DNA from: Amphiscolops sp. MND2022 | Taxonomy: Eukaryota | NCBI GenBank assembly: GCA_964187785.1 | Contig: OZ076409.1 | Span: 11,534,001 to 11,598,000, forward strand | DNA length: 64,000 bases | Reading direction: 5' to 3' | In this document: positions 27,967-48,590 of the stretch, piece by piece | Position numbering within the stretch: the stretch's first letter is position 1 | How the letters are laid out: each line of letters starts with the position of its first letter | The notes under the pieces: generated by a model | Told to the model about the DNA's origin: nothing | Databases searched by the model: none | The model's input: only the letters and a program-made list of their open reading frames with translations | Made by a program: the position numbers and the translations under genes

Positions 27967-28288
27967 GTGTTCGTCAGTTTGTTCATTTGTGAGTGTGGTG
28001 AGTTTTGTATGACTGGCTGAGAGCAGTTCTTCAAATTCCAGTTGAGTGCAAAATTCAAGCACCGTTTCCACGTATAAAAAAGTGTCAGCAGCTTTATCAC
28101 GGAATGATCAAACGACAAAAATAACAACAAAAAAGGGAGAAAACGAAAGTCGGTTTAGATATGCACACTCTAGGCCTGTATGTTTGACTTAGAAAGGATC
28201 TGAAGACAGAATAACCATTTTTTGGATTAAAACCTTCAATTTCCATTGAAAGTTAATCATTTTGATCATTAAGAGTTATCGATTAAAT

Positions 28289-28974
28289 TGTAACGTCTGC
28301 CACCGGCATGACCAAAATTTCGATGAAAAATTCGAAATGTGCGATGTCAAAATAGAAGAAAAAAGATGGCCGACCTGACAGGTACCAAAGGTGTGAAAGA
28401 AAAAAGATAACACGCGGAGAGCGAGCAAGAAAGAGAACACGTGCCGGAAAAACAGCAGAAAAAGATGAAAGAGCAAGAAGATCGAGGAATGTCACGATGG
28501 CAATTATCGGGATGTTGTGTCATCTCCTACGAAATTCAACAATATCAGATGAAAATTGCGAGAGGCATATTCCGAATTATGGCTTGAAACTGTAAAGTAA
28601 TTGGGGTTTATCCCACGATATTTGGAAGATGTTTGACCTTCTAGGTCATTTTATATCTTATTTGCCAAATACTATGTTTTCCAGCTAAATCACTGTTTTG
28701 AGCTCGGAGGCATGTAGGAATTCGCAGGAGTACATTAGAACCCTTAGGATTGTTTTTACAGGCTTGTGGGGCGTGTCCGGACTTTGAGAGTGCCGGCGCG
28801 TCGCTTTGGAGCTCTAACCAGAGAAGCCTCCTTAGACGTTAGAAAAGTCCCCCTTGGAGACCATTTTGGGATCAAAAACTAGTGTCTAGGTATGTAGTAA
28901 GACAAAGGTCTCCTGTTTAAGCATCCTAGGCATTGTCCCTCTTCCTAGATGTGCGCCGCTAGCCGGACGTTACA
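28289..28974 (+). repeat. 5' LTR (686 bp)
   Basis: TGTAACGTC...GACGTTACA inverted termini; by hand count ~13 substitutions and one 30-bp indel versus the 3' LTR. Confidence 0.97.
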
Positions 28975-28990
28975 TCTGGAATAGTTTTTA

Positions 28991-29007
28991 TGGCGACCAC
29001 AGGGGGA
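28991..29007 (+). promoter_or_regulatory. Primer-binding site, probably tRNA-Arg
   Basis: TGGCGACCACAGGGGGA is complementary to a tRNA 3' end ...TCCC..GTGGTCG-CCA, resembling animal tRNA-Arg(TCG) as recalled. Confidence 0.65.
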
Positions 29008-45935: not shown

Positions 45936-46480
45936 AAGAACAACAACCGACGCTGAGCCGTTCAATCTGAAAATAAAAACTTGCCTTTGAATAGACAGGA
46001 CTTTACCCTAATGGTCTTAGACCATTGCATTTTTGTTGGTGCTAAGACACTGAATTGCAAAGTAATACTTATTATCTACTTAAATTTTAGTTCATCTGCA
46101 TCATGTGGGTGGGCCCTGAGCCAGTGCCCACCCTCTCTAGTTCGGTAATTAACCATTGTTACCAAGACTTGAATTTTGTTACCTGGAGGAGTGCTAAAGC
46201 ACTTTCTAGAAAAAAGATTTTAATCTAAGTTTGCGAAATTGCTTGCAAATTTTGAGGTTGTCAATCATAAATTTTAGTTTTGTCCAGTGATTATTTTTAG
46301 TTATCGTAAGACCAACTGATATTAATACGAGGAAATAACAAAAGAAAAGTTTGGAGGTTGAAAGAAAGCAAGTAGGGAAACAACGAAACCTTCCTAAGGT
46401 GTTCAAAAAACTCTCAGCATTGCTATCACCCTCTGGGTATTAGCATCCTCTCGTTTGCCGAGGACGACAAACTACGGCTC

Positions 46481-46488
46481 GGGGAGGA
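46481..46488 (+). promoter_or_regulatory. Polypurine tract
   Basis: GGGGAGGA directly before the TG of the 3' LTR. Confidence 0.85.
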
Positions 46489-47204
46489 TGTAACGTCTGC
46501 CACCGGCATGACCAAAATTTCGATGAAAAATTCGAAATGTGCGATGTCAAAATAGAAGAAAAAAGATGGCCGACCTGACAGGTACCAAAGGTGTGAAAGA
46601 AAAAAGATAACACGCGGAGAGCGAGCAAGAAAGAGAACACGTGCCGGAAAAACAGCAGAAAAAGATGAAAGAGCAAGAAGATCGAGGAATGTCAGGATGC
46701 CAATTATCGGGATGTTGTGTCATCTCCTACGAAATTCAACAATATCAGATGAAGATTGCCAGAGGCATATTCCGAATTATGGCTTGAAACTGTAAAGTAA
46801 TTAGGGTTTATCCCCGTTTTTCCTCGTTATTTTCATAATTCCCTTCGATATTTCGAAAATGTTTGACCTTCTAGGTCATTTTATATCTTATTTGCCAAAT
46901 ACTATGTTTTCCAGCTAAATCACTGTTTTGACCTCGGAGGCATGTAGGAATTCGCAGGAGTACATTAGAAACCTTAGGATTGTTTTTACAGGCTTGTGGG
47001 GCGTGTCCGGACTTTGAGAGTGCCGGCGCGTCGCTTCGGAGCTCTAACCACAGAAGCCTCCTTAGACGTTAGAAAAGTCCCCCTTGGAGACCATTTTGGG
47101 ATCAAAAACTAGTGTCTAGGTATGTAGTAAGACAACGGTCTCCTGTTTAAGCATCCTAGGCATTGTCCCTCTTCCTAGATGTGCGCCGCTAGCCGGACGT
47201 TACA
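46489..47204 (+). repeat. 3' LTR (716 bp)
   Basis: Direct repeat of 28289-28974 with an extra 30 bp flanked by TCCC microhomology. Confidence 0.97.
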
Positions 47205-48590
47205 AATCAATTTAGTACTTTTAGTCTTTTTCGATAGTGTGGTCAATGGAGAATTAGTTGCGGATTAGTTGCGACTGTGCAAGGCTACTGTTGCGATTGT
47301 CTGAAAAATTGGGAATTCGCACGCTTTCCACTTTAGCTCATTCAAATTTCTTCATTTTTCAATTATCTCCCGGATACCTCAGATTGTTCTCATGGTACCC
47401 CCTTTTACTTGAGTTTTTCAGGTAACATCACATGCTTTGTTATTTTGCTCACATTGTTTTTACAATGTCATCCACCGACGGTTGAATGGTTGGTGATTCA
47501 GCTGTGACAAATGTTTTATGCTAAATCAGATAGATGATTTGAAGTCAGCCAAAAAATGGTGTTGTAACATCAATTTGTTGGGATCCAATTGGATGATTTT
47601 CGCCTATTGATAAAATGCTAAAAAAGGCATTTTAATTTTCTTTCAATCGTGGTTGTTAGAGCATCGTCTTCTGGAAAGAAAAATTCACAGCGTGACAGGT
47701 TCGTTTCTCTTTTGCCGCTTCAAACTTTTCAAGCGTAGACAAAACCTGAAATTCGATTTTTGATTGGTATAATTAATTCGTTTTTCTTAAAATTTTTCCT
47801 ATTCGAGAACTTAAGAGTGAATCAGTGATGTGGGGAAATTGATAATTTTAAAACTGTAGATTGATACTGAAATTCATGGCAACTGGAACTTAGAAGTAGA
47901 AAGATCTGTTTTCATTAGTCATATCATAATTTGCAAACCAGTGGAATCTTTCGTGCGTTGGTTTAGAAGTGTTAACAACATCAGAGGAGTAATTGACAAG
48001 TGAAAGTGTGATCGCGTCGGCAACAAAAGAGGGAATATTTTTTCATTTCGAATGTCATTGTGAAGTCTGTAGTGTAATCCTAAAAGATTTGCCACCGAAT
48101 GCTACCTAAAATTTTCAAGGTACCTTTAGAATAAATACAAACCATGCAGATTTGCAGCATGTGAAAAACTCCTGCGGTCTATGTATATGAGTTCACTTTT
48201 GGTGATTTTTCCCCACACAAAAATACAATCTAGCAAGCTGATATAATTGGCAAGATTTAGGAGCAAATTAGAATTTCTCAAGAAATAAATCCTTTCATCT
48301 ACTGTATCCACAACTGTGTTTCTTGGGCATTTGATAACAGGAGTGAATCATTCTAACAGTATTCTCTCTACAAGTGAACCTTAGACGTTAGTTTGGTTTG
48401 CTTCCATTAGTTGAGGTTAGCAGGATTCTCAGTTCGTTCAAAATACTTAAATTTTGTACAAAAAAAAACATCTTTATTTTGTCAACTAGAAACAAAACAT
48501 ATAAACGTGGGTTGGACAATTCAGATCGATTTATTCATCTAAATTTGAATTTCACACAAAATCACGGTAAAATATGAAAATGTGACTATG

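Follow-up and report, generated by a model that had tools for sequence, protein, structure and literature searches.

Apparent 3-bp target-site duplications at two insertions of a giant Ty3/Gypsy-type retrotransposon lineage in Amphiscolops: a probable 3-nt integrase stagger outside the Troyka group

Can a Gypsy retrotransposon with canonical TG..CA ends integrate with a stagger of only three nucleotides? The question is raised by 64,000 nucleotides of genomic DNA from Amphiscolops sp. MND2022 (assembly GCA_964187785.1, contig OZ076409.1, positions 11,534,001 to 11,598,000 of the forward strand; hereafter the window, in whose coordinates all positions are given), which hold a giant Ty3/Gypsy-type retrotransposon and, upstream of it, a solo long terminal repeat (LTR) of a sister subfamily, each flanked by a 3-bp repeat. 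A preliminary description of this DNA had set these repeats against a norm of 4-6 bp for the target-site duplications (TSDs) of LTR retrotransposons. That norm stands outside the Troyka/Kuafuortervirus group, which makes 3-bp TSDs: the Troyka LTR retrotransposons, found in aquatic animals (Kojima 2025, PMC12440569), overlap the Kuafuorterviruses (Gong and Han 2024, PMC11673190; published sources are cited, here and below, for the passages of them that were searched). We consider it probable that the window records a Gypsy sub-clade whose 3-nt stagger arose independently of Troyka, as a second origin.

The full element spans 28289-47204 (18,916 bp, with an interior of 17,514 bp) and lies between AAT at 28286-28288 and AAT at 47205-47207. 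As read in the window, its junctions are AAT/TGTAACGTC at 28289 and GACGTTACA/AAT after 47204, or in short form AAT/TGTAAC...GTTACA/AAT. The solo LTR reads CCT/TGTAACGTC...GTCGTTACA/CCT. The features that define both insertions are the following:

17930..17932, plus strand: left 3-bp duplication CCT of the solo LTR (flank comparison)
17933..18674, plus strand: solo LTR of the sister subfamily, 742 bp (LTR alignment)
18675..18677, plus strand: right 3-bp duplication CCT of the solo LTR (flank comparison)
28286..28288, plus strand: left 3-bp duplication AAT of the full element (flank comparison)
28289..28974, plus strand: 5' LTR, 686 bp, TGTAACGTC...GACGTTACA, with a perfect 9-bp terminal inverted repeat
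46474..46488, plus strand: polypurine tract, abutting the 3' LTR
46489..47204, plus strand: 3' LTR, 716 bp (LTR-LTR alignment)
47205..47207, plus strand: right 3-bp duplication AAT of the full element (flank comparison)

The limits of the LTRs were set without recourse to the duplications, from the comparison of the two LTRs, which places position 46489 directly 3' of the polypurine tract and the end of the 5' LTR at 28974. Aligned with each other, these LTRs mismatch at 13 of 686 columns and have a further 30 columns with gaps (Kimura two-parameter distance, K2P, 0.019; about 98% identity), and the solo LTR stands at a K2P of 0.23 from the 3' LTR, with 81% identity over the last 420 bp. All three LTR copies carry the same termini, TGTAAC..GTTACA, while the flanks differ between the two insertions and the LTRs come from different subfamilies.

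When repeat lengths from 1 to 8 bp were tried at each site, 3 bp was the sole match at either one. At the full element, 2 of 4 positions mismatch at a length of 4 bp and 4 of 5 at 5 bp, and at the solo LTR the corresponding figures are 3 of 4 and 4 of 5. Moreover, among 81 combined shifts of the start and end, each tested with five lengths, only the unshifted boundaries with a 3-bp repeat (0, 0, k = 3) fit both sites, and a longer TSD of 4-7 bp hidden by misplaced boundaries is thus ruled out. By chance, a 3-bp match is expected with a frequency of 0.0205, as estimated from 200,000 random position pairs in the rest of the window, which gives 4.2e-4 for both sites and 5.9e-3 for any one shared length from 2 to 6. 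The preliminary description was exact as to the coordinates of AAT and CCT and right that neither match extends to 4 or 5 bp, and its judgement that two chance matches were unlikely now has the figure of 4.2e-4 behind it.

How such repeats would arise follows from what is known of related enzymes. Retroviral integrases attach each CA-3' end straight to a phosphate of the target, and the TSD is as long as the stagger between the two joints (PMC9410886, PMC2857682). If joining is likewise direct here, and given that both ends still finish in CA, the 3-bp repeats point to a stagger of 3 nt, barring later change; a longer TSD is unlikely to have decayed in an element as young as the full one (K2P 0.019). 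In the mechanism that we propose, the integrase would attach the cDNA by its two CA ends at phosphates three bases apart in the target, and repair would then leave a 3-bp duplication. This length would be the rule for the lineage, and the solo LTR would stem from a full insertion, made by an integrase of this sub-clade, that was later reduced by LTR-LTR recombination. Sharper bending of the target accompanies a shorter stagger (PMC4422553, PMC9410886), and of the retroviral intasomes with known structures that were compared none has a shorter stagger than the 4 bp of prototype foamy virus (PFV); a 3-nt stagger would presumably need sharper bending still. Retroviral integrases usually keep closely to their length, with correct TSDs at 15/15 sites of human immunodeficiency virus 1 (HIV-1), 8/8 of murine leukaemia virus and 7/7 of spleen necrosis virus, as cited in PMC2857682. 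The same paper gives, for xenotropic murine leukaemia virus-related virus (XMRV), 4 bp at 13 of 15 sites, 5 bp at one, 273 bp at one and 3 bp at none.

Several points weigh against a 3-nt stagger. The sample is two insertion sites, and the integrase that made the solo insertion cannot be read because the coding part is absent from a solo LTR. The prior is low, given 4-6 bp for every LTR retrotransposon except Troyka (PMC12440569). With a prior of 1/500 and 2% of short errors, the posterior for a 3-bp lineage is 0.67-0.77, these rates being assumed and not data, and over the whole grid of assumed rates it runs from 0.03 to 1.0, a span that shows how sensitive the estimate is to these assumptions and should not be taken as a measured value. 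Integrases can also leave mixed lengths: the Troyka sites include one of 4 bp (PMC12440569), and Rous sarcoma virus (RSV) makes both 5 and 6 bp (PMC9410886). Finally, in a point that the preliminary description does not raise, AAAT is present at 28285-28288 and, counting the terminal A of the LTR, also at 47204-47207, so that a 4-bp TSD with one A lost from the run would give the same pattern at the full element.

These last points favour the strongest competitor, namely that the lineage makes 4-bp or mixed 3/4-bp TSDs, and that one or both sites are off-length events, or that the full-element site lost a homopolymer A through mutation or assembly error. RSV, with its 5 or 6 bp, and the Tor elements of Oikopleura, with 4 or 5 bp (PMC4402516), are precedents for mixed lengths, and if short events made up 5-10%, the low prior would bring the 3-bp reading to 0.03-0.75. 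This explanation requires, however, two independent exceptions. The solo site has no run ambiguity, and a 4-bp duplication there would require that a T not belonging to any run had dropped out; moreover, none of the 15 XMRV sites fell below the normal length (PMC2857682). We hold it to be a serious possibility, yet one with perhaps a fifth of the weight. The short integrase stagger advanced in the preliminary description remains the most likely reading, its support consisting of two sites.

More sites were sought with little return. No other LTR of the lineage lies in the window, LTR pattern scans of metagenome and prokaryote-genome contigs gave 0 matches, and proteins spanning LTR-flank junctions amount to one right junction and two left-end matches which, coming from three different contigs, provide no junction pair and hence no TSD. 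No paralogous empty site was found in the window or in related loci, and a search for collinearity of the flanks by Pfam had no useful match in 24/24 frames. The region is dense in repeats, with many nested relics, and the flanks on the two sides could not be demonstrated to be collinear. One might suppose from this that both true TSDs disappeared, whether by deletion, misassembly or recombination of LTRs belonging to separate insertions, and that the 3-bp matches are fortuitous. We find this improbable: the loss would have to occur twice and a coincidence of 4.2e-4 would be needed as well, and the full element retains intact ends and LTRs of about 98% identity.

The full element itself is a giant Ty3/Gypsy-type LTR retrotransposon, with zinc knuckle, aspartyl protease, reverse transcriptase (RT), RNase H and integrase placed by Pfam in the Gypsy order. 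Its interior contains, in terms of spacer, primer site, open reading frames (ORFs) and motifs:

28975..28990, plus strand: 16-nt spacer from the LTR end to the likely primer-binding site
28991..29008, plus strand: likely primer-binding site, whose reverse complement ends in CCA
32142..34780, plus strand: gag region in three frames (ORFs)
34277-34318 and 34472-34513, plus strand: two CX2CX4HX4C zinc knuckles in gag
34606..40286, plus strand: pol, with protease (DTG at 35137), RT (YIDD at 36610), RNase H and integrase (Pfam)
38094..39149, plus strand: integrase, with HHCC and D86/D147/E183 (38349, 38532, 38640)
38445..38450, plus strand: 2-residue insertion (residues 118-119) in the integrase loop between core strand 3 and helix 1
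39057-39071, plus strand: GPF/Y-type motif of the integrase, as WRGPH, aligned with the GPF of Ty3
40403..41485, plus strand: C-terminal portion of Pol, shifted to a different frame (change near 40430)
41656..45935, plus strand: extra ORF region in four frames, about 4.3 kb (ORFs)

This anatomy bears on the idea that a DNA transposase with 3-bp TSDs, and not the element's own integrase, pasted the ends through their 9-bp terminal inverted repeat. The inverted ends are indeed perfect over 9 bp in the full element and match at 8 of 9 positions in the solo LTR, and several groups of DNA transposons make 3-bp TSDs (PMC10045372). Short inverted ends are nevertheless normal for LTRs, the retrotransposon is anatomically complete, its primer site and polypurine tract being in place and its integrase retaining all three catalytic residues, and no transposase domain was found among the ORFs scanned by Pfam; we give this idea very little credence. 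The nearest parallel among DNA transposons is the IS3 family, with its integrase-like DDE enzyme, TG..CA ends and TSDs of 3 bp in most subgroups and of 4 and 5 bp in others (PMC10045372), which differs from our element in lacking RT, LTRs and the HHCC domain. Enzymes of this class can thus make a 3-nt stagger, as Troyka and the IS3 family indicate, and the IS3 family is moreover a precedent for a stagger that shifts between sister lineages.

Is the element then simply a Troyka? It shares with that group the condition of LTR retrotransposon, the order protease-RT-RNase H-integrase, the lack of a recognised env and the 3-bp flanking repeats (here at 2/2 sites). The differences are nonetheless many, if we take the features given for Troyka in PMC12440569: termini CG..CG (CGCCA..TGGCG) against TG..CA in 3/3 LTRs, LTRs of 100-400 bp and an interior of 1.5-7.7 kb against 686, 716 and 742 bp and 17,514 bp, a knuckle CX2CX8-10HX4C against two CX2CX4HX4C, and an integrase without GPF/Y motif against one with WRGPH. 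Termini, size, knuckle spacing and GPF/Y-type motif speak against membership of Troyka, by a comparison of features and not by a tree. In this line, the Troyka-type knuckle occurs in 0/163 family proteins and the canonical one in 14/163, with 25 occurrences of WRGPF, and the best 150 representatives out of 1.84 billion include 112 with GP[YFHW], 45 with the canonical knuckle and 6 with the Troyka-type pattern. An aberrant Troyka, or a Troyka-derived integrase, would make the 3-bp TSD an inherited and already known trait, and could appeal to Troyka being the known LTR group with such TSDs in aquatic animals and to a tree that contained no Troyka sequence. With the features above against it, and with an integrase that clusters with sister families bearing GPF (support of 97 in the Shimodaira-Hasegawa-like approximate likelihood-ratio test, SH-aLRT), it is the least credible of the explanations considered.

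The affinities of the element lie with Metaviridae, as direct LTRs with TG..CA, primer site, polypurine tract, Gypsy domain order and GPF/Y-type motif indicate, although the 4-6-bp TSD typical of that family (which is not a basis for its classification) is seen at 0/2 sites. For RT and integrase, the nearest solved relative among retroelements is Ty3 of Saccharomyces cerevisiae (PDB 7Q5B, 4OL8) both by sequence (E 3.9e-63, the query being a 96%-identical relative) and by fold (Foldseek E 1.7e-21, from an integrase model with a predicted local distance difference test, pLDDT, of 86), a proximity that is not a full classification, as the PDB matches include no BEL or Troyka integrase. Ty3 shares the domain order and the GPF/Y-type motif, has a 5-bp TSD (bioRxiv 10.1101/2021.07.27.453949), is far smaller and lacks the extra ORFs. 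The length of Ty3 is about 5 kb. In the literature searched, with Repbase Reports and most subscription journals lying outside it, no Gypsy element that joins TG..CA ends to a 3-bp TSD was listed, a negative that speaks weakly for novelty; the new point would be the combination of a 3-bp TSD with TG..CA ends and a Gypsy-type integrase, a 3-bp TSD itself being already known.

What in the integrase could set a shorter stagger? We aligned 97 integrases, that of the window and 96 chosen from 314 collected proteins. The 2-residue insertion at residues 118-119, whose exact placement within 38439-38459 depends on the alignment, is present in 29 of the 97, each 57-98% identical to that of the window, and in none of the remaining 68, which include 20 sister rows at 44-52% identity. 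Among family proteins, a pattern count gave the long form in 59 of 106 and the short form in 45, with 57 of 163 outside the pattern. In a quick integrase-only tree of 66 rows (mostly unnamed relatives, midpoint-rooted, with many long branches and without Troyka sequences), the insertion corresponds to a 17-row clade (SH-aLRT 100) within a 37-row lineage (SH-aLRT 97). The structure model places it between the strand 111-117 and the helix 123-138. In the intasome of mouse mammary tumour virus (MMTV), Gly96 and Thr99 touch the target backbone (PMC9410886), and these residues fall on positions 121 and 124 of our integrase by an ungapped count back from the aligned MMTV stretch 106-162. Granted a true 3-nt stagger, it is still speculative, though conceivable, that its length was changed by the two inserted residues, which lie next to these target-backbone positions. 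The fuller scenario, in which the sub-clade gained its 3-nt stagger through this insertion, independently of Troyka, whereas its short-loop sisters keep 4-6 bp, strikes us as unlikely. The loop idea was formed after the fact and faces other difficulties: Ty3 is one residue shorter in the loop by pairwise alignment and yet makes a 5-bp TSD, the sub-clade differs from the 20 sister rows by further single-residue indels at 63, 252 and 292, and this loop is not named in the passages searched of PMC4005685 and PMC6784120.

A second difference of the sub-clade lies nearby, at 38535-38543, where the residue after the second catalytic Asp-Asn is Ala in 29/29 sub-clade rows and Gly in 65/68 others, adjoining the residue equivalent to Ser119 of HIV-1 and Pro125 of MMTV. 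This Gly-to-Ala change (29/29 against 3/68) was set aside as a determinant because MMTV has the same residue and a 6-bp TSD.

Other parts of the element deserve description. The likely primer site begins 16 nt past the end of the 5' LTR, and the usual spacing is 0-3 nt; if 28991-29008 is the true site, the cDNA would carry at its right end a long stretch of extra sequence that must be removed before integration. The primer may be tRNA-Arg; the window contains no tRNA genes. Folding of the U5/primer-site region does not exceed that of shuffled sequences (z -1.5), and Rfam gave no match above threshold. A leader of about 3.1 kb (29009-32141) precedes the first gag ORF, and the only ORF of at least 150 codons in it, 30947-31444 on the minus strand, has no Pfam match. 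Relative to database relatives, the frame changes near 34710, 36717 and 40430. A macrodomain found in the relatives P0110 and P0185 was not confirmed for the ORF at 40403..41485. The extra ORFs include an SGNH-hydrolase-like part, so far a lead (ESM Atlas 0.88-0.89), with a tblastn match of E 4e-12 to the metagenome locus L013. An SGNH-like extra ORF past pol, on the same footing, recalls the GDSL/SGNH ORF3 of Vesta, a Gypsy element of bdelloid rotifers (PMC5408684), and in the main text of that source TSDs have 0 mentions.

With regard to the spread of the family, 282 proteins match it, and among the 120 matches listed 119 come from ENA assemblies, with protein clusters of up to 2,541 members. 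Family Pol clusters of 178, 208 and 895 members point to hundreds of Pol copies in the protein collection. Protein-based scans found 40 loci in metagenome contigs and no relative in viral contigs or genome contigs, and self-comparison detected an LTR pair around the match in 0/17 metagenome loci of at least 3.5 kb. A sister lineage with about 50% integrase identity occurs in other metagenome assemblies (L001-L015) and shows the shorter loop form wherever the loop is readable; the gag-pol-SGNH-like layout is seen at L013:3300-20000, a locus of 20.8 kb with no recognisable LTR in the part available.

The surroundings of the two insertions contain other elements. At 13729-17310 lies an older, decayed Gypsy-like LTR element with LTRs of about 230 bp, 86% identical, and a very A-rich interior, too decayed for a control TSD to be recovered. 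The stretches 9400-11650 and 22300-25390 are decayed and retroelement-like, and by eye may be Copia-like and gag/LTR-like. Short inverted-repeat elements, similar to miniature inverted-repeat transposable elements, occur at 5319-5632, 62596-63050 and 27520-27967, the last one 320 bp upstream of the full element. An assembly gap of 200 N (52079-52278) falls outside the element.

What determines whether an integrase staggers its joining by 4, 5 or 6 bases is only partly understood. If the reading of the two sites is true, the 3-bp stagger would have arisen a second time, in a Gypsy element with canonical TG..CA ends, and a 3-bp TSD would no longer be a marker of Troyka alone. There would be practical consequences too, as LTRharvest demands by default a TSD of at least 4 bp, and annotation tools set in this way would overlook this family, with its hundreds of Pol copies, or trim its members wrongly. 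The sister integrases at 44-52% identity offer a close set for comparison and, if the loop reading were also true, they would make with this sub-clade a natural before/after pair that pins down a determinant of stagger length.

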